Positions 1,612 to 33,307 of a stretch of DNA of 34,246 nucleotides are shown here, piece after piece. The stretch lies in the IMG/VR virus record IMGVR_UViG_2529292882_000018, positions 1 to 34,246 of that record; one strand, given 5' to 3'. Each line of letters starts with the position of its first letter. Position 1 is the first letter of the stretch. The position numbers were made by a program, and so were the translations under genes. The notes below the pieces were generated by a model that saw only the letters and a program-made list of their open reading frames with translations, was not told the DNA's origin and did not search any database. Source of the DNA: a virus. Its lineage: Duplodnaviria; Heunggongvirae; Uroviricota; Caudoviricetes.

Positions 1612-1654
1612 TATAAATACTCCGTGGAAAGTTAGTTTTAATTGTTCATTTCAA

Positions 1655-1692
1655 GCCTCCTTTGCTGCAACAAGGGAGGCTTTTTCTTTTTT
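1655..1692 (+). terminator. intrinsic terminator oriented for + strand
   Basis: GCCTCC...GGAGGC hairpin followed by TTTTTCTTTTTT; sits between two minus-strand genes. Confidence 0.55.
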
Positions 1693-1907: not shown

Positions 1908-2426
1908 CTTAAATCCTCCTAAATCTGGATTAATGATTTCTTAAAAAAGAGCGTTAACCGCTCACTATTATTTATATGGGGATTGTATTTTATTTTTCAA
2001 CCCCTCACATTTATCTCTTATATATGTATTTATAACAGAGATATGTTAAAATGTTATTCAGATGTTATCAGACGTGTTAAATGTGTTAAACCGCAGCACG
2101 AATTGCTAAAGAGAAGAACACGAATTAACCAAATTGATGTTTATTCAATCAATTTAGAAAATTGCATAGCACTTTTTGCTAAAGCGGTGAGCATTAATTG
2201 AGCTATGAATTGTAAAGATTTGTTACAAGATTTTCTCTCAGATCCAAATCTTCACAAACATATAACAATTTAACACGATGATAACAATAGGAAGGAAAAT
2301 CGGTAAATTTTCACTTTCAATACAAATATTATACCACATTTTTTCTCGAATTGTCAAGTATAGCACCAAACCTACATAGTGTCAAGAAAGGACTTTCAAA
2401 CCTACACTAGCCCTACACTATGAAAA

Positions 2427-2612
2427 TTGCCCCTGAATTTTGCCCCTGAACCAAAATCCCCTAGATTTCACTATCCCATTTTTGCCCCTGAAACCTACTA
2501 TTTTTGCCCCTGAAATTCTGGGAAACAGTGATTTTGCCCCTCATTTTTGCCCCTGAAATGCCAATAATTGCCCCTGAAAATCTAATTTTTGCCCCTGAAA
2601 TTTGCCCCCGAA
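2427..2612. repeat. array of nine direct 11-bp repeats TTGCCCCTGAA (seven exact, two one-base variants)
   Basis: Copies start at 2427, 2440, 2482, 2504, 2534(variant), 2547, 2568, 2589, 2602(variant); spacing 13-42 bp; inverted variant copy at 2655-2665; same 11-mer forms the left arm of the terminator at 5125. Confidence 0.85.
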
Positions 2613-2813
2613 AAGGATTGGTAAGAAAAACTCTTTATAAAACATTGACTTAGTGAGGGGCAAAAACGGGGAATCGGGCGTGCATAGATATTATATGACA
2701 CATTCGCTACGCTCATGTGTAAAACCAAAAACAACAAATAACCAAAAAGATATTAGGAGGGCGTAGCCCGACTGCGCGAAGCGCTAACCAATTACTTCTA
2801 GTAACACTAATTT

Positions 2814-3036
2814 AAACTAGATGATACTAGATGGTCTTAGAAGGAATTAACTAGTTTGCTCGCTCGCTTCGCTCACTCTCAAACGTCTGCGACGCCACTG
2901 CGTGGCATCGAGAATCACTTCTGAAAGGATTTTCTTGAAAGGGATTTTAAACTAGTTACTAACTGATTCTAGAAAGATAGTAATAATCACTTTGAAGATA
3001 ATAGTAGTTAACTGGTTACTAGATGATTCTAGATCA
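2814..3036. repeat. three copies of a ~20-27 bp CTAG-rich element (core ACTAG-TGAT-CTAGA)
   Basis: Copies at about 2814-2844, 2949-2976 and 3009-3036; eight CTAG tetranucleotides within roughly 250 bp of non-coding DNA. Confidence 0.55.
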
Positions 3037-3293
3037 CTTTAATGATCATGAAAGGTATTGGTATCCCTTCGGGATTGCAACCTTCGGTTGCTAAATTGCT
3101 TCCTAATTATTATTTCTCCAAAAGAAAGATTCTTATATTCTAAAGATACTTCTTCGTTTTGATGATGATTTAATCAAAATCTATGAAGGAGGCGAAGCCG
3201 ACTGAATACCAATTCCTTTCAAATTAGACAAAAATTTCTCGTTATAAATAATAGTGAACTTACTTTGATTCACTTTTTTAGAGGATTTCCACT

Positions 3294-3746
3294 ATGATCA
3301 ATACTAAAACTCCTTTCATTCTTCTGGGTCTGAACCATGATGATAATCTGGCTATGATGCATGTTTTCGCTAATCGTGGTTATAACATCATTCGTCATTC
3401 CGAAGACTCCAATTTCTCAACTGCTTTCTATGCTCTTAAACGTAATGGTCGCCCTACGGTGATCGTAGACTGCTTTACTGATGAAGGTCGTGAACAATAC
3501 AACAACATTCCGGCAATTATTGTTCGTGATGACCTGCCGTTTGATGTTCGTGAATATGACGTTGATTTAGGCTCTTACTATGGGATCGCCGATCTTGACC
3601 AGATTATGGCTGATTACGGTAAACAACCCGCTCAGGAAGCCCCAGAACACGATGAACAAGACGAAGATGACGACGACTACACACCAATCTGTTTCTCTTC
3701 TCACGGTGGCTTCTACGGTTACGATGAAGGCTTAGATATGCTGTAA
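3294..3746 (+). CDS. acidic hypothetical protein
   Basis: 150-aa ORF; strongly acidic with C-terminal EHDEQDEDDDDY run; leader shares a 22-bp element with the gene at 30200. Confidence 0.6.
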   Translation: MINTKTPFILLGLNHDDNLAMMHVFANRGYNIIRHSEDSNFSTAFYALKRNGRPTVIVDCFTDEGREQYNNIPAIIVRDDLPFDVREYDVDLGSYYGIADLDQIMADYGKQPAQEAPEHDEQDEDDDDYTPICFSSHGGFYGYDEGLDML

Positions 3747-4199: not shown

Positions 4200-4288
4200 T
4201 AAATTTCTATTATAAATAAAATTGTTCCGGCGGTGATGCCGGAACTAGGAGGACCAAATCATTAAACCGTTTAAGGGGAATTAATACT

Positions 4289-5116: not shown

Positions 5117-5124
5117 TAATTTTT

Positions 5125-5149
5125 GCCCCTGAATTTCAGGGGCTTTTTT
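5125..5149 (+). terminator. intrinsic terminator
   Basis: GCCCCTGAA / TTCAGGGGC inverted repeat followed by TTTTTT directly after the Rha-like gene. Confidence 0.8.
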
Positions 5150-5543: not shown

Positions 5544-6146
5544 TTATTTAGAGGACTTACATTTTATCGGAAAAAGTTCTCCATCGTCAATACTCATAAA
5601 GAACTCTGCCTTAATCCCGTACTTCTTCAACCGTGAATAGTATGTACCCCGACTTATATCAACCTTGCGAAGCACTTCAAAGAACCCTTTAGGATCGTTG
5701 TAATAGTGGCTATAACGCACGTTAGCGAGTTCAACGAATAGTTCCCTTGTATCACCATAGCCTTTCTTGAAAGCCTCGTTACGATAGCGTGTAATTGCGT
5801 GATTCAATCTCTTCTGTTTCAACACTTCTCGGATCGGCTTCCACTGCAACCGATAGATAGGACCGTCATCCACTCGATAATAACGCTTGATATCAAAATC
5901 AAACCAATCTCGGACTCTCCGAAACTCTGTATGTGATGTTCTATGCTTCTTAAAGAAGTTGTGAACGTCTGTATAACCATTATCGCGGTAAAACTCTATT
6001 AAAATCTCTTTCGCTTCCTCACGACTAAAGCCAGATGTTGTGTAGTCGGTTTTTAAATGCTTATGCTTAACTGGTAAACGATATTCATGATCGGTACAAG
6101 ACAAGGCTAATTCTAATTCATCTCTTTGTTGCTGATTAATTAGCAT
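5544..6146 (-). CDS. hypothetical basic protein with C-terminal HTH-like motif
   Basis: 200-aa ORF with AAGGGGGG RBS; C-terminal [16 protein letters not shown] resembles the HTH of the two small paralogs; arginine/lysine rich. Confidence 0.5.
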
Positions 6147-6234
6147 ACAACCCCCCTTAAATCTTAATACCCGTATTTATCAAAAAATCAACAATTTAAT
6201 AAATACCTTCATATTTCGTAATGAGGGTAATTAC

Positions 6235-14092: not shown

Positions 14093-17000
14093 ATGCAATC
14101 AATCCAATTTAAACGAACTAATGTTTCTGGCAAAAAGCCAACGCCGGAACAATTACAGGTCGGTGAGGTGGCAATCAACCTTAAAGACCATGTTATTTTT
14201 ACCAAAGACCGAGATCATGAAGTAGTTCAAATCTCTGTTTCTCCTGAAACTCACGCGGCACTAGAATCTAAAGTTGATGCTAACAAACAAGAATTGGATA
14301 GCACAATTGCAGTAAATGACCGCAATATTCACGCTAAAGTAGATGAAATTAAACAAACTACTGATTCTACTATCGCAGCAAATCATGCAGAAATTAACAA
14401 TAAAGTTGATGTAATTAAACGCGAAACCGACGCGACAATCGAAGCTAATAAAAATAAAGCTGCTTCCGATCTTGCTGGTGTTAAAGCTGAATTGTCGGAT
14501 ACCATCAACGCTAATAAAAATGCGGCTGCTGTAGCAACTCAGGAACTGGACACCCGCATCAATAAAAAAGTTGATGATATTAAATCCCGTACAGATGCAA
14601 CCATCGCAAGCAATGACAAAGCAATCAATGACAAAGTTGATTTGATTAAGACAGAAACTGACCGCACTATCGCAGCAAATAAAGTCTATGCGGAAAATCA
14701 GTTAACTGACACCTACAATAACCTTACTGGTGTGATTGCAGCTAATAAGCAAGAGGCAGCGGATAACGTTGCGGCATTAACCCGTGATGTTGAAGCCAAA
14801 AATACAGCAATTCATAGCAAAGTTGACAATAACAAGTCTTACACTGATTCTGAACTGGCACGTTTAGAAAGCCGTATTGATGCAGCCGATGGATCTGCTG
14901 ATGGCAAGTACATCAAAAAACACGTAAACACTTATACTGATGGTTATTTGCTGTCTAAGACCGCAAACTATTTTGATGATCCAAATGCGCGTAATCTTGA
15001 TTACTTTGGTGCATTCCGCATGAATGACCTGGCGGGTCATATTGCAATGATCTTGCATGTTCCGCATCCATCTGGTGTTAATCATGCTCGTGGCTTTGAG
15101 TTCACTTATGGGTCTAATCCACATGCTACTGTAAGAACATACGGCTATGATGAATTAGGTAATTTGTCATATTCTCACCGCATGTATCATGAAGGTGATA
15201 AACCTACTCCGGCTGAAATTGGCGCATATTCGAAAGCAGAAATTGACCGGATGTTCCAGAAGACCATCAACTTTGGTGTAGAAACTGGATGGTTTAAAAT
15301 TGCTACCGCCTTTATTCCGCAAAATGACGGACGTAGCTTGAAAATTAGATTGATTGGTGGAAATGGGTGGAACGTAGGACAAACTGGACAATGTAATATT
15401 ATTGAACTTGTTATAAGGACTAGCAACGGTTCGCCTAAAGGAATTAACTTTGTTGCGTATCATCATGTTTCTGGTTACGAAAATCAATTTTGTGCCATTA
15501 ATACAGGTGATGACACTTATGATATCTATGCATATTACTTCGAATTTACTAATATGGTAATGGCTGAATATCAAGCGTCCAGCGATGTTAATTTAACTGT
15601 ACTTGATCGACCTGAATATGTAGGCGATAAACCTGTAGCTGACCATATCTATGATGCATATACAATACACTCCTTTAACAGTTTCAGTAACCGTGGAACG
15701 TTAAATTTTGCTGGAAACCATCAAGGCCAATATGACATTGAGCATATGAACGAACAACCGACAAATGCTAAAAAGATGTTGCGTCGGTTTAGAAGCTCTG
15801 CCCTCGCGACAATCTGGCATGAAACCGTTGATGATAACGCATATCGTCTTGCCACTGGCGGTACAGATTCAGGTCAACAATTATTGCTGACAACAACCGG
15901 GTTACATGTCAAGAGATTAACATTGGATGGCGGTGCTGCGGGTGGAAATGCTGGTATTGATATTCGTCGAGGACCAAACGAAGCAAGCCATTTTAATTTT
16001 ATGGATTATCGCACTGGTCAAGATGTTCGTAATGGCTGGTTTGGTTTTGGTGATTTGACGACCAAAGATTTTATTTGGTGTAACGATAACGGTCAAAACT
16101 CGATAAACTTGATTGAAAACGGTGAATTACATATTACTGGTGGTAAAGGCCAGAAAATTGTAATGAATAGCGAAGTCGCATTGTCTGAAAATGCTCGTTT
16201 GGCTGTTAAAGGTGGTAATTATGGCTTAATTTTTAGAAATGATGGTACTAGTTTCCATATACTGACTACCGATTTAAAAGATTCTTTTGGAAATTGGAAT
16301 AATCGTAGACCATTCAGCTATGATTTCGCCGAAGGTGGATTAGATCTAGGTGGCACAACGACCGAACGCTGTTTACATCTGGGAATTGATGGTAGTACCC
16401 GCATCGAGGAGAACTTAGTTTTCCGATCTGGGTCGCGTCAATCAATGGACTATATTGAAATGATCCATTGGGGTAACAGTAATATCGCTCGTGACAACGT
16501 TTTGAGTATGAAAGACTCAAAAGGATTCCTTGCTGAATTTGAACGAGTGGGTGGGACTAACGGCGTTAAAACCAGATTCTTTGGTGAAACATTCACTGAT
16601 GGTACATTATACCTAAATCAGATGAATAATAGCTCTGAACGATTCTCTATCAACAATTGGGGAAATTCAGAAGTTGGACGCGCGGCAGTAATGGAAATCG
16701 GCGATTCCAAAGGTTATCACTTCTATACGGAACGTAGAACAGATAACAGTTTGATGTTTGATGTTGCTGGCGCTTTTACTGTGCATGGACCTAGCGGGAT
16801 CACTATCAAAAACTCTGATGGTGCTCGTCACATCTGGTTTAGAGATAACAGCGATACAGAAAAGGCTGTTATCTGGGCTACAGATGAGGGTATTTTACAT
16901 ATTCGCAATAACCACGGTGGACAATTTAGTCATCACTTCCAGGGTGCAATGATTAAAGCGGGAGAGCGTGTTCCATATAATAGTGAATACGCTCTTATCC

Positions 17001-18548: not shown

Positions 18549-18602
18549 ATAAATAGAATTACGGGTATGTGCCCTATTGTTTAAAATAGAAGGAAAAGAA
18601 TA

Positions 18603-22277: not shown

Positions 22278-22282
22278 TTAAA

Positions 22283-22327
22283 AGCCCTCATAGTGATAAA
22301 TAATCATAAAACTATGGGGGCTTTTTC
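22283..22327 (+). terminator. stem-loop with T-run after tape measure gene
   Basis: AGCCCTCATAG ... CTATGGGGGCT imperfect inverted repeat followed by TTTTT. Confidence 0.45.
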
Positions 22328-22328
22328 T

Positions 22329-28358: not shown

Positions 28359-29042
28359 ATGGCAACCAGTACCAATAAACGAAACGCTCTAAGGACTAAG
28401 AAAGCGTTGAGGCAATGGTCTGAAAAGGCAACAGATACATTCGAAAGGGCACTAGGGGAAGGGGCGATCTTTGCTTCCAGAGCACTCCAGAAGAAGATTA
28501 ACAAGAATGTTGATAGACCTACTCGCTGGACTCAGCAAGCTGTAGGTAATACCAACTACAAGAACCGATCAGGGACGAGACACCAAATCTTCATCAAGGG
28601 TGCAAGGGATAAGGATAAGAAGATCGGCAGTCAGGACGACTATCTGAAACACTATTTCGATGGTGGCAAAATCAATAAGCTAGTTCCAATCGCCAACGGT
28701 AAGGTCTTAGACGCTCACGGGAACATTAAGGCCATCAAAGGCGGTAAGATGATGCGTAACCTCGAAAACGGCAACTTCATCAAGGTAGAGAACAAGGAAG
28801 GGACTTTTATCATGAAGAAGTACAAGCCTAAGAAATCCCGAACCAAACGCGCTAGGAATGGATCGGCGGTGGCAAAACGTCGCTTAGAGAAACGCATACA
28901 GAAACAGAGCAAGCGAATTGTTGCCGTTAAATCGGATAAAATTTCTACTCGTTATTCGACGCTAGGATCGTGGGAAAGCAACGAAGCAATGATGCTTGAA
29001 AACATCAATAAGCACATTAAATCGCGCATGAAATACGTTTAA
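28359..29042 (+). CDS. highly basic hypothetical protein
   Basis: 227-aa ORF, Lys/Arg-rich throughout. Confidence 0.5.
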   Translation: MATSTNKRNALRTKKALRQWSEKATDTFERALGEGAIFASRALQKKINKNVDRPTRWTQQAVGNTNYKNRSGTRHQIFIKGARDKDKKIGSQDDYLKHYFDGGKINKLVPIANGKVLDAHGNIKAIKGGKMMRNLENGNFIKVENKEGTFIMKKYKPKKSRTKRARNGSAVAKRRLEKRIQKQSKRIVAVKSDKISTRYSTLGSWESNEAMMLENINKHIKSRMKYV

Positions 29043-29080
29043 TCAATAAATACCCTCATAGAATCTTATGGGGGTATAAC

Positions 29081-29428
29081 ATGGCTAAAAATATTTTCAC
29101 TGAATTTCCTACTTATCCGGTCGATCAGCTTTCCGGTATTTTTATTAATGGCATTAGCCCAGAATCTATGACACATGATTTTGAGGCGAAGAGAGTTAAA
29201 CATAAACAATATAAAGAATGTATCCGCGATCATGAAAAAGGGACCGTGTTTTGTGTCGCTACATTGGCTAAACGTCCTAAGTATCGTTTTCGTGTAGGAC
29301 AAGAAGTTGATGTGGTTAATCCTTATAGCTTTAACTGTCTGGGCGATGCACGCGCGGTGTGTGTAGGCACTGCTCCTTATTATATCAAGGGTATGCGCTT
29401 TATTGGTTATATCTTCGAAATGATCTAA
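29081..29428 (+). CDS. hypothetical protein
   Basis: 115-aa ORF. Confidence 0.5.
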   Translation: MAKNIFTEFPTYPVDQLSGIFINGISPESMTHDFEAKRVKHKQYKECIRDHEKGTVFCVATLAKRPKYRFRVGQEVDVVNPYSFNCLGDARAVCVGTAPYYIKGMRFIGYIFEMI

Positions 29429-29437
29429 GGGGGTAAT

Positions 29438-29791
29438 ATGTTAAGTAAGCATTTTTCTCGCAAGGAATTTAAATGTAAATGCGGAAAATGTGATTATGAT
29501 ACAATCGACGCTGAATTACTGGTGATTCTTGAGGATGTACGAGAGCACTTCGGTAAACCAGTGATTATTAACAGTGGCAACCGTTGCCCGACTCATAACA
29601 AGAATGTAGGCGGGGCAGCCAATAGCTATCACGTTCGAGGCCGCGCGGCTGACATTGTTATCAAGGGTGTCTCGCCTGATATTGTTCATGCTTATCTTGA
29701 TGGGAAATATCCTACTCAATACGGCTTAGGAAAATATAAAACCTTTACGCATATTGATTCCAGATCAAAAAAATCACGGTGGAATGGATAA
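29438..29791 (+). CDS. endolysin, peptidase M15-type
   Basis: 117 aa; SGNRCPTHNKNVGGAANSYHVRGRAADI and THIDSR fit the zinc-binding H/D/H pattern of M15 peptidase endolysins. Confidence 0.8.
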   Translation: MLSKHFSRKEFKCKCGKCDYDTIDAELLVILEDVREHFGKPVIINSGNRCPTHNKNVGGAANSYHVRGRAADIVIKGVSPDIVHAYLDGKYPTQYGLGKYKTFTHIDSRSKKSRWNG

Positions 29792-30155
29792 AACAAAAGC
29801 GCCTCTGGTGGGCGCTTTTTTGTTAGAATATGCTGGCGACGTTAGCTATATTTCTGACCATTTTTTCATTATAGACAAATATACCGCAGATGATAAAGTG
29901 GTATTCGACGAAGTTGATCCGTCTCTGGTTGAAGCAATGAAAGAACCTGAGATCGTCATTGAAGAAACAAAAGAAGAATCTCCGGCAATTGAACCAGTGG
30001 TCGAAGAAGTTACGTCAGATGTTGAAGAAGCACCGGAAGTTAAAGTAGAATCTCCGGTAGCAAACATTTTCTCTGACGAAGCAGAGCATCGTTCTCCTGC
30101 ACATGATACTGATTCATTTTGTGATCTTACTGGTTTCCAAAACTACAATAATTAA
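29754..30155 (+). CDS. acidic Glu/Pro/Val-rich hypothetical protein, start uncertain
   Basis: Track ORF starts at TTG 29754 and runs through the terminator; in-frame GTG 29898 or ATG 29937 are alternative starts. Confidence 0.35.
   Translation: MIPDQKNHGGMDKTKAPLVGAFLLEYAGDVSYISDHFFIIDKYTADDKVVFDEVDPSLVEAMKEPEIVIEETKEESPAIEPVVEEVTSDVEEAPEVKVESPVANIFSDEAEHRSPAHDTDSFCDLTGFQNYNN
29798..29822 (+). terminator. intrinsic terminator after endolysin
   Basis: AGCGCC-TCTGGTG-GGCGCT hairpin followed by TTTTTTG. Confidence 0.75.
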
Positions 30156-30199
30156 TTCTTATAAATAGTAGTGAACTTATTATTTTCGAGGACACTACT

Positions 30200-31198
30200 A
30201 TGAATACTACTTTAGCAAAGGATATCGAATTTACCACAAAAAGCAAACGTGCGACCCCTCCGGTCGAATATGAAACCAGAATCATTAAAGTTTGTCAAGT
30301 GCATGGGTGGTTATACAGTGGTTTTGTGCTTCCTGTAAAGAAACCATTCCAGAACACCAAAGTTTGCATAGAAGTTAACGGAAAGGTTAAAACGCCATGT
30401 ATTAGTCATGTTCTAACTGGTCAGTTTACTGGCAAAGATAGAGTATCACCGCCTAAGAAGAAGTTTAGATTTACCGAAGAAGAACACTTAGAAAACGCTC
30501 GCAAGTTCTACAAGCCGATAGGGTGGGATGTGTTAGGTCTGGCTGAACCTTATCAGGGTGTTGACACTAAACTAATTCTTCGTTGTAAGTGCCACGGAAA
30601 GATTCACAAGAAAGGTGATTTACACAATAACCGCAGACAAGGCGGGTTAACATGCCCTTTGGTTAGGGGTGTACTTAAATCAATTCAGAATGGTAGAAAA
30701 CAGGTTATCAGAAACAAGTTTGCACAGCGCCCTATGCACTTTTATCTAATTCGTGTTGGCGAGAAGTTTTTCAAATATGGAATTACCACTCGCAAAGATC
30801 CGATGCAACGGGTAAGAGAACACCAGAAGCACACCAGCGAGAAAATCACCTTTGAATGCTCACATTTGTTTAACATTGGATGGAAAGCTGGTGATTTAGA
30901 AATGGGGATTAAAAAGAATATTCAGGGCAAGAAAATCCCACGTAAGGTAATGAATAGCGGATTCACAGAAACGCTACCGATTAGCAAGTTGAAAGATGTT
31001 AAATCATTCATCAATGAATACATCCACACCAACCCATCTAAGCCAATGTATTTTGATGATACCAACGCAATCAATCTGAACAACTACATTAGTGATGAAG
31101 ACATAGAACGAGATTTATCGCAGTGGATGAATGCACCGTTAGCTGATTTAACACCGGAAGACTTAGAACTCGATTTAAGCCCTTTAGAGGCTCTTTAA
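30200..31198 (+). CDS. Cys/His-rich protein with GIY-YIG-like (T5orf172-like) segment
   Basis: 332 aa; FYLIRVGEKFFKYGITTR...RVREHQ resembles the GIY-YIG core; N-terminal Cys/His clusters suggest zinc binding; leader shares 22-bp element with gene at 3294. Confidence 0.5.
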   Translation: MNTTLAKDIEFTTKSKRATPPVEYETRIIKVCQVHGWLYSGFVLPVKKPFQNTKVCIEVNGKVKTPCISHVLTGQFTGKDRVSPPKKKFRFTEEEHLENARKFYKPIGWDVLGLAEPYQGVDTKLILRCKCHGKIHKKGDLHNNRRQGGLTCPLVRGVLKSIQNGRKQVIRNKFAQRPMHFYLIRVGEKFFKYGITTRKDPMQRVREHQKHTSEKITFECSHLFNIGWKAGDLEMGIKKNIQGKKIPRKVMNSGFTETLPISKLKDVKSFINEYIHTNPSKPMYFDDTNAINLNNYISDEDIERDLSQWMNAPLADLTPEDLELDLSPLEAL

Positions 31199-31213: not shown

Positions 31214-31235
31214 AAGGGGTACAGATGTACCCCTT
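31214..31235 (-). terminator. perfect 10-bp inverted repeat AAGGGGTACA-GA-TGTACCCCTT, probable terminator of recombinase gene
   Basis: Lies between converging genes; on minus transcript the hairpin is followed by TTTTAATTTAATT. Confidence 0.5.
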
Positions 31236-33016: not shown

Positions 33017-33262
33017 TTAATATTTCTTTCCAGTTAGTTTTGCATCACGTTTATTAATATCCTCGATATGACTCCATACACACGCAGTAATAAAGTCGTC
33101 ATCGTCACCAACTCCGGCAACCTGTGCTAATTCAGTACACAGTTGATTTAAAGAAGGTGCAACGGCAGCACGCTTGACACTATCACCCTGTACATATTGT
33201 TCGGCATTTGCAGCACCAACCAAACCCAGAGCAAGAACAACACCCGCGATAATCTTTTTCAT
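33017..33262 (-). CDS. small secreted/periplasmic protein
   Basis: 81 aa; N-terminal MKKIIAGVVLALGLVGAANA signal-peptide-like segment, two Cys, DDDD run. Confidence 0.55.
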   Translation of the reverse strand: MKKIIAGVVLALGLVGAANAEQYVQGDSVKRAAVAPSLNQLCTELAQVAGVGDDDDFITACVWSHIEDINKRDAKLTGKKY

Positions 33263-33307
33263 AGTAGAATTTCCTCTTGTTATTTGAATTACGATATATT
33301 TATATCG

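Follow-up and report, generated by a model that had tools for sequence, protein, structure and literature searches.

What could a short leader that stands in front of two genes of the same prophage do for them? The question is raised by positions 30158–30202 of a 34,246-nt stretch of Caudoviricetes DNA (IMG/VR record IMGVR_UViG_2529292882_000018, positions 1–34,246; hereafter the window), which represents nearly the whole of a ~35-kb siphovirus-like prophage in ycdX of Escherichia coli. A previous sequence-only reading had recorded this element, with coordinates that we found to be correct, as the second copy of a leader shared with positions 3240–3296. It had also proposed that the inverted repeat TAGTG...CACTA around the Shine-Dalgarno (SD) sequence could occlude the ribosome-binding site (RBS) in the mRNA. 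Here, we suggest that the element might be a −35-independent promoter fused to a translational gate in the style of the late leaders of phage T4, an interpretation to which we assign a probability of about 0.5.

The two copies are paralogous leaders, as had been noted. The 21-mer TTATAAATARTAGTGAACTTA (that is, TTATAAATA[A/G]TAGTGAACTTA) has two exact matches in the whole window, at 3242–3262 (copy 1) and 30159–30179 (copy 2), both on the plus strand, and none would be expected according to 100 dinucleotide shuffles with up to three mismatches tolerated. An ungapped repeat search extended the similarity to 46 nt with 76% identity (3217–3262 and 30134–30179). Start codons terminate both copies, ATG 3294 of an open reading frame (ORF) for 150 amino acids (aa) in copy 1 and ATG 30200 of a 332-aa ORF in copy 2. 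The whole window gave no match to Rfam 15 at the gathering score, and a blastn search (word size 11) of 50,697 phage records with the 76-nt leader gave no significant match (best, 39 bits). An apparent third context, in which the leader preceded a different gene (MNHK...), was corrected because that gene proved to be an allele of the 150-aa family with 63% identity.

The feature that the sequence-only reading had missed, and that makes simple occlusion an incomplete account, is the T4-type box TATAAATA overlapping the 5′ arm of the inverted repeat. The T4 late-promoter consensus spans −13 to −6, needs no −35 element, and has A at −13 as its commonest variant (PMC2988020; PMC7892883). Both copies carry its 8 bp as perfect 8-mers, and the first base of the box tolerates variation as in T4. 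The inverted repeat of copy 2 extends further than originally noted: ATAGTAGTG and CACTACTAT are perfectly complementary over 9 bp, and the minimum-free-energy structure has an inner 3-bp helix between GAG of the SD and CUU at 30176–30178. RNAfold gave −13.1 kcal/mol for this leader and −6.1 ± 2.0 kcal/mol for its dinucleotide shuffles (z −3.48), only 1 of 200 shuffles being equally stable. The predicted start, G30173, is the final base of the 5′ arm, and RNA begun there has lost the hairpin altogether (−1.1 kcal/mol, z 0.04).

Related prophages have the same arrangement. Their commonest allele forms a perfect 12-bp stem, ATAGTAGTGAAT/ATTCACTACTAT, with −15.2 kcal/mol (z −3.2), which falls to −2.9 kcal/mol when the RNA begins at the sixth nucleotide after the box. 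For the L014 allele, z changes from −3.16 in the full leader to −0.41 from the predicted start. Two further relatives have a hairpin of the copy-2 type, significant in one (L197, z −2.6) and weaker in the other (L198, z −1.8), and the 3′ arm occurs in the variants AACTACTAT, CACTAATAT, and CACTATTAT, the last of which gives a G·U pair. The segment ATAAATAGTAGTGA is 100% conserved even in Proteus, where the downstream protein has only 60% identity, implying a strong constraint of some kind. The relatives also have a conserved TTTCTC directly 5′ of the box, upstream of the predicted start, as an alternative pairing partner of the SD.

How could these parts work together? We suggest that TATAAATA acts as a −35-independent promoter box, from which transcription would start about 6 nt further downstream, at G30173, after the 5′ arm. 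The resulting 27-nt leader would be unstructured and translated. Read-through RNA from the upstream late/lysis operon would instead carry ATAGTAGTG, paired with CACTACTAT over the SD–AUG spacer and the AU of the AUG; in the relatives, TTTCTC of such RNA may pair with the SD instead. We found no strong plus-strand terminator between the lysis genes and 30160. As the start region would be paired in read-through RNA, the 332-aa nuclease-like gene would be poorly translated from it. Provided that the box is a promoter, RNA started from it lacks the 5′ arm, so that occlusion would be confined to the read-through RNA. Copy 1 would combine the same box with a weaker gate before the 150-aa gene. Both copies would belong to a prophage-wide set of boxes, NATAAATA, which serves terL, the tail tube, a lysis-region gene, Rha, small helix-turn-helix (HTH) regulators, and accessory genes.

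The distribution of the box argues for such a set. The 8-mer TATAAATA occurs seven times in the window and its 7-mer core, ATAAATA, 12 times; the first base is T in seven, A in three, and G in two of the 12 boxes, and the core is fixed. All 12 cores are intergenic, while intergenic bases make up 10.9% of the window. AT-only 7-mers are, as a class, 29.5% intergenic, and ATAAATA ranks first among the 128 such words; by our own arithmetic, 0.295^12 gives ~4e-7 for all 12 boxes being intergenic. Every box points at a gene start or a terminator, and 10 of them sit 27–71 nt 5′ of a same-strand start codon. The genes thus preceded are terL, the divergent 200-aa gene, the tail-tube gene, the gene after the tape-measure gene, the gene starting at 29081, Rha, the 60-aa HTH gene, and the 81-aa secreted, 150-aa, and 332-aa genes. 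Of 27 ATAAATA words in relatives from Proteus, Salmonella, and E. coli, 25 are likewise intergenic, and the restriction is absent from unrelated phage contigs that have only an endolysin in common with the window. The 88-bp region between terL and the 200-aa gene has one box per strand, 28–30 nt from each ATG. Because this divergent region must hold two promoters, we count it in favour of the boxes being promoters.

At terL and at the 29081 gene, the SD is masked by hairpins of unrelated sequence that adjoin the box, and both are lost from RNA begun at the predicted start. At terL, the energy is −10.5 kcal/mol (z −2.3), and −2.5 kcal/mol for RNA begun 6 nt past the box; a terL variant, CTCTCAT in L203, retains the pairing via G·U. 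The corresponding values for the 29081 gene are −16.2 kcal/mol (z −4.7) and −1.0 kcal/mol. The terminator-like hairpin after the tape-measure gene has −21.3 kcal/mol (z −6.6). In the Rha leaders of the relatives, we found four stem sequences (GUUCCGGC, GUCCCGA, GUCCUG, and UCCGCGCGCC), which start at, or at most 2 nt from, the sixth nucleotide after the box. Judged from separate folds, the stem differences are compensatory replacements; a MAFFT alignment left the diverged 3′ arms out of register. In several leaders of the 60-aa gene, GAGCG/CGCTC with a U-run also starts at the sixth nucleotide after the box. Stems at this position are what would be expected of 5′-terminal stem-loops in box-initiated RNA.

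Could the whole motif function in RNA only, as a signal in a polycistronic late mRNA that contains no promoter? It might then mediate translational coupling, serve as an S1/AU-rich enhancer, or be an RNase E site accompanied by a stabilising stem. Hairpins that mask the SD are well known as coupling devices. The stop codon of the ORF upstream of copy 2 (30153–30155) lies 10 nt before the 5′ arm, where a terminating ribosome could partly open the stem, and the same argument applies to the stop at 29040–29042, 8 nt before the arm at 29050. Such an explanation is nonetheless distinctly unlikely, in our view. Boxes occur at terL and copy 1 with no same-strand ORF upstream, nothing but a terminator follows the box at 1613, and another box lies inside a terminator loop. 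Boxes in opposite orientations share the divergent region at terL, and the fixed 5-nt distance between box and Rha stems of differing sequence fits a transcription start better than processing.

A second possibility is that the host reads the box as part of an ordinary σ70 promoter of a moron. The box would supply the −10 element (TATAAA, or AATAGT/AATAAT), and the inverted repeat would be incidental or tune translation. Consistent with this view, a σ70-like candidate matching 10 of 12 positions, TAGACA-16-AATAAT, overlaps the box of copy 1, and AATA[A/G]T preserves A−11 and T−7 in both copies. By inspection, two minus-strand boxes can also be read as TTGAAA-18-TATAAA (1976) and ATAACA-17-TG-TATAAA (2034). 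The integrase-adjacent cargo position is typical of morons, with a defence-like helicase there in some relatives, and, like the σ70 moron promoters of temperate phages, copy 2 stands alone before an accessory gene beside the integrase, followed by a terminator (31214–31235). Still, we consider a moron promoter unlikely. A σ70-type promoter scan gave no site at copy 2, and there is no conserved −35-like hexamer in the upstream 32 nt of 15 distinct aligned leaders from relatives, whose downstream proteins are 48–100% identical. By inspection, the ATAAATA common to the 12 boxes cannot give A−11 and T−7 of a −10 element together, and CC or GA after the boxes at terL, the tail-tube gene, and the 29081 gene leaves no usable −10 hexamer. 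Unlike moron promoters, there is neither a −35 element nor a TG extension here, and the box is common to structural and lysis genes. Canonical σ70 promoters elsewhere in the element, such as TTGACA-18-TATAAT at 2357–2328, look quite different from the boxes, so that the element appears to use two promoter classes. Activator-dependent late promoters that lack a −35 element and are scattered before the morphogenetic operons of temperate phages are established for Mu C, P2 Ogr, and P1 Lpa (covered in part by PMC2582627). Those promoters retain a σ70 −10 element and an upstream activator site, whereas ATAAATA, in the −10 position, is the sole invariant part here, and no more than a pyrimidine tract (TTTCTC) lies just upstream of it.

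A promoter inside a hairpin that gates translation is textbook T4 biology. The T4 genes e, soc, 49, and I-TevI, and also I-TevII/III, mobE of Aeh1, and segB of T4, have the same layout as copy 2, in which DNA at and around the box encodes the 5′ strand that sequesters the SD, the AUG, or both. For e, soc, 49, I-TevI, mobE, and segB, the upstream-derived transcripts are translationally silent and the late transcripts lack the 5′ strand (PMC3014915). I-TevI, mobE, and segB encode homing endonucleases, and the gene downstream of copy 2 likewise appears to encode a homing-endonuclease-like nuclease. There are also differences from the T4 systems. The element is a ~35-kb integrated siphovirus-like prophage and not a T4-like myovirus, no gp55, gp33, or gp45 genes were detected in it, and the layout, as predicted from sequence, occurs at many genes including terL. 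Unlike in the T4 leaders, the SD of copy 2 lies in the loop, and mainly the AUG and the spacer are paired.

A 15-mer scan of IMG/VR gave mostly chance matches and was informative only for further copies in the relatives and for two metagenomic contigs of virulent phages (L026 and L069, with primase, td, and a split nrdA). Among the matches listed, TATAAATAGTAGTGAggagaaCACTACTATG precedes a homing endonuclease of phrog_314 located after the split nrdA in these contigs (L026 320–960). They share with copy 2 the box, the arms (GTAGTG/CACTAC), and the UAU overlap with the AUG; their 3′ arm was outside the search pattern. They differ from copy 2 in that the SD makes up the whole loop of only 7 nt and in that the gene is that of a different, Seg-like endonuclease. 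The likeness is most likely convergent, because an arm abutting the box fixes its complement. As read from these contigs, the same promoter-in-hairpin solution exists in virulent phages of that kind.

Several observations weigh against a promoter combined with a gate. The stem of copy 2 lacks covariation in the 15 leaders: over the nine pairs scored, no double change occurs, the 5′ arm is the same throughout, and seven pairs never vary. Although 93.3% of the cells pair, with one C-to-U change giving G·U, nine cells are unpaired, including a G·A mismatch at the inner pair in 7 of the 15 leaders and a mid-stem mismatch in 2 of them. Given the missing covariation and the mismatched alleles, conservation could reflect a constraint on the promoter or the translation initiation region alone. 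The leader comparison neither proves nor refutes the helix. In copy 1, pairing is limited to ATAGTG with CACTAT and competes with that of AGTGAA (3253–3258) with TTCACT. Its fold (−8.8 kcal/mol, z −0.54) is no better than shuffles, the same holds for copy-1 hairpins in four relatives, and one relative (L140, the chromosome of ETEC1739 at 2892150–2927245, where ycdX is split by the ~35-kb element) no longer has the 5′ arm. Occlusion of the RBS therefore holds up in part: the copy-2 fold beats chance and pairs the spacer together with AU of the AUG, but the weak copy-1 fold and the lack of covariation do not bear it out. The hairpin of the terL leader is lost in Proteus. The total number of ATAAATA words does not exceed chance (12 versus 10.7 expected), only their placement being unusual. 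If the read-through RNA and the own RNA come from one promoter class, moreover, the gate has no clear purpose.

A further difficulty is the reader of the boxes, as we detected no gp55 or gp33 homologue in the ~35-kb element. The T4 class is characterised by a gp55-family σ factor working with gp33 and a sliding clamp from the same genome, and no such set was found. Literature searches on prophages or satellites with T4 late promoters returned nothing relevant. The boxes might instead be genuine gp55-type late promoters that the element itself cannot read and that are fired by an infecting T-even phage with cytosine DNA (Krischvirus/RB49-like), which we regard as quite improbable. It is just as doubtful that the whole ~35-kb ycdX element is a parasite or defence element of cytosine-DNA T-evens, activated by their gp55, gp33, and clamp. 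The nuclease, lysis, and virion genes would be turned on by the infecting phage, for defence or helper-dependent spread, and the leader hairpins would silence the genes on host-driven read-through RNA. The exact match to the T4 late consensus, with the same tolerated −13 variants, would be accounted for in this way, as would the missing gp55/gp33 homologues and the lack of a recognisable replication module or (CI-type) repressor in the element. A patch of Krischvirus inh directly upstream of copy 2 (258–361 bp, 97–98% identical) points to recent recombination with such phages, one of which, JK32, carries a full-length homologue of the 332-aa gene, and the neighbouring cargo is defence-like. 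However, the boxes precede core genes of the element itself (terL, tail tube, and lysis) and would thus have to be readable by an autonomous phage. A novel factor could be among the unannotated small proteins, and the missing detectable homologues are weak evidence. The element is also widespread and conserved in Proteus and Salmonella, and the literature search turned up no experiment linking it to T-even infection.

If the box is a promoter and the hairpin a gate, the mechanism would not be new, but its location would be unexpected: small temperate siphovirus-like prophages of E. coli, Salmonella, and Proteus that form an uncharacterised family. These prophages have the T4 late consensus before essentially every transcription unit, yet no gp55-like factor is detectable. 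Should the element encode its own factor, it would be an unrecognised minimal promoter-specificity factor and a new route to −35-independent transcription. Should the boxes depend on or respond to T-even phages, they would represent a new kind of phage–phage interaction. For annotation, the box offers a simple rule for locating transcription units in this prophage family, and the hairpin marks genes that are probably translated only from box-initiated RNA.

Table 1. Positions in the window of the two leaders, the genes they precede, and the other ATAAATA boxes
Feature	Position	Strand	Remark
TATAAATA box, copy 2	30160–30167	+	T4 late consensus (−13 to −6), predicted start G30173
5′ arm ATAGTAGTG, copy 2	30165–30173	+	covers the final 3 nt of the box plus the 5 nt leading to the predicted start
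SD GAGGA, copy 2	30188–30192	+	3′ side of the 19-nt hairpin loop
3′ arm CACTACTAT, copy 2	30193–30201	+	spans the SD–AUG spacer and A, U of the start codon 30200–30202
332-aa gene under copy 2	30200–31198	+	CapR-like zinc-ribbon repeats, T5orf172/MUG113-type domain, acidic C-terminal tail ...EDLELDLSPLEAL
Krischvirus inh patch, 258 bp	29882–30139	+	directly upstream of copy 2, in a 5′-truncated inh-like ORF
TATAAATA box, copy 1	3243–3250	+	predicted start G3256
Copy-1 leader	3251–3296	+	ATAGTG 3251–3256, TTCACT 3269–3274, SD GAGGA 3281–3285, CACTAT 3290–3295, ATG 3294–3296
150-aa gene under copy 1	3294–3746	+	highly polymorphic family
ATAAATA box 6199–6205 and adjoining hairpin CCTTCAT/ATGAGGG	6199–6234	+	masks the SD of terL (ATG 6235)
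ATAAATA box	6174–6180	−	28 nt 5′ of the 200-aa HTH gene (5544–6146, minus strand), divergent from terL
ATAAATA box 29046–29052 and adjoining 12-bp hairpin UACCCUCAUAGA/UCUUAUGGGGGUA	29046–29080	+	masks the SD of gene 29081
15-bp terminator-like hairpin after the tape-measure gene	22280–22328	+	ATAAATA box 22296–22302 in the loop; SD of the next gene in the 3′ arm
ATAAATA box, exactly 5 nt, then stem-loop GTTCCGGC/GCCGGAAC	4212–4245	+	Rha gene leader
ATAAATA box (TATAAATAATAGTGA, partial third copy of the shared motif)	1969–1975	−	upstream of the 60-aa HTH gene; GAGCG/CGCTC and a U-run from the 6th nt after the box
ATAAATA box	2027–2033	−	regulatory region, 120 nt 5′ of the 60-aa gene; TG and a −35-like hexamer ATAACA before the box
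ATAAATA box	33297–33303	−	35 nt 5′ of the 81-aa signal-peptide gene (33017–33262)
ATAAATA box	18549–18555	+	48 nt 5′ of the tail-tube gene (18603)
TATAAATA box, ~35 nt, then strong intrinsic terminator (1653–1682 and T-run)	1612–1692	+	

The gene under copy 2 had been described as GIY-YIG-like, an assignment that we could uphold at the level of profiles and not at Pfam thresholds. The profile of the 332-aa family matched neighbouring genes annotated as T5orf172 with 96% probability (hhalign, E 4.6e-9), and the protein matched PHROG 681, "endonuclease", at 7e-20. The Pfam matches to CapR (E 0.014) and MUG113 (E 0.13) remained below the thresholds, NCBIfam gave no match, and PADLOC gave only sub-significant matches to PD-Lambda-1. 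The product thus appears to be a CapR/T5orf172 nuclease-like protein of the GIY-YIG superfamily. Full-length or partial homologues exist in T5 and in the Krischvirus phages JK32 and Whisky; the Krischvirus homologue is sporadic, lying at full length between uvsW and uvsW.1 in JK32 and being absent at that site in Makalu_002. Within the prophage family, the gene is conserved and syntenic beside the serine integrase (48–85% identity) and is not sporadic. In E. coli and Proteus relatives, it lies together with the inh-like gene between endolysin and integrase. We rejected a recently acquired homing endonuclease cassette, as the two genes are syntenic in relatives down to 48–60% identity.

The inh-like gene upstream has a mixed history. 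It is otherwise an old homologue of Krischvirus inh, with 68–76% nucleotide identity (L195–L197) and a relatedness of ~70–75% around the patch, and its patch in the window is 95–98% identical to the middle of inh from RB49/JSE/GEC-3S-like Krischvirus phages. A recent patch of 258–361 bp is present in the window and in two relatives (L012 and L014), and such high identity inside a diverged gene indicates recent recombination between a T-even phage and this prophage. Import of the leader itself from a known T-even phage was rejected because the leader has no blastn match and only the adjacent patch does. Compared with strain CUVET21-37 (L012 1981–2656), the window lacks 676 bp near 29880. In L012, this segment encodes a T5orf172/GIY-YIG endonuclease on the minus strand and also includes the inh-like gene's 5′ end; its deletion makes the ORF at 29754/29784–30155 a truncated fusion remnant.

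In some relatives (L013 at 1924–3414 and 3555–3620, L146, L151, and L153), a minus-strand DEAD/DEAH helicase replaces the inh-like and 332-aa genes. The helicase has PbeA and type IV restriction-like matches, and a leader of the copy-2 type survives before a diverged or truncated allele (MKLAYAA*). Judging by such exchanges, the endolysin–integrase site behaves as a cargo or defence hotspot. Might the shared 21–46 nt be merely a scar of recombination at a module boundary, a linker for cassette exchange that has no regulatory role? The variability of this interval and the leader retained in L013-type relatives after cargo replacement would suit such a linker. We find it highly improbable, as the position after the box is always A (or C) in copy 1 and always G in copy 2 across the relatives, which indicates no ongoing exchange between the copies. 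The motif is also conserved down to 48–60% identity of the downstream protein, and the geometry of box and gene at 10 other sites would be left unexplained.

Proteins of the 150-aa family under copy 1 have a generic α/β N-terminal domain, an acidic disordered linker, and a nearly invariant acidic-hydrophobic C-terminal tail, ...GFYGYDEGLDML. The C-termini of both leader-controlled proteins (31150–31198 and 3700–3746) have a conserved acidic stretch followed by a short hydrophobic tail (...EDLELDLSPLEAL and ...GFYGYDEGLDML). We presume that these tails resemble interaction motifs of the sliding-clamp or SSB-tail type.

The prophage carries genes for terS, a gpA-type terL, portal, a protease-capsid fusion, tail tube, tape measure, a T4 gp37-like fibre, and an M15 endolysin, as well as a large serine integrase and a Rha-family gene. 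No recognisable replication module or repressor was found in the ~35 kb. The products of the element also include many orphan proteins and several HTH proteins of small size (60, 77, and 200 aa). Related copies are present in 58 of 5426 complete E. coli genomes and also in Salmonella and Proteus. There is no close cultured phage, the best capsid match being 45% and in a chimeric-looking record. The record in question, Escherichia phage DCP80 (PQ671644.1, 141 kb, "Gaprivervirus"; L192 and L199), was not used as evidence since it is probably a chimeric assembly. It opens with a terL-portal-capsid module 45% identical to that of the element, followed by T4-like genes with two inverted rIIA copies, and in it a T4-like phage was probably joined to a relative of the element.

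The box within 1612–1692 abuts the start codon of a 313-aa minus-strand gene and may, together with its terminator, produce a small RNA of ~70 nt antisense to the leader of that gene. On the minus strand at 5545–5551, a variant box, CTAAATA, precedes ATG 5514 of the 77-aa HTH gene by 30 nt, with a GTGAA/TTCAC hairpin after it. This site reads CTAAATAATAGTGATTAATCACTA in relatives, and the terL box of L203 is ACTAAATA, which resembles a late-promoter variant of the Aeh1 type (PMC2988020).

A repeat of the TTTTTGCCCCTGAAA type occurs in seven to eight copies at 2425–2613, with one more at 5119–5141. The array lies in a 1.2-kb non-coding region and adjoins perfect σ70 promoters on the minus strand (2385–2328). 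It looks like an iteron or operator array, and the copy at 5119 is part of the terminator after the Rha gene. The same non-coding region has several direct repeats, aaactagatgatactagatgg/aactggttactagatgattctaga, at 2790–3050, which could be a packaging, origin, or regulator site. Finally, five 48-nt units with a period of 66 nt (22 codons) occupy 14270–14680, in the 5′ part of the gene for the 1169-aa gp37-like tail fibre.

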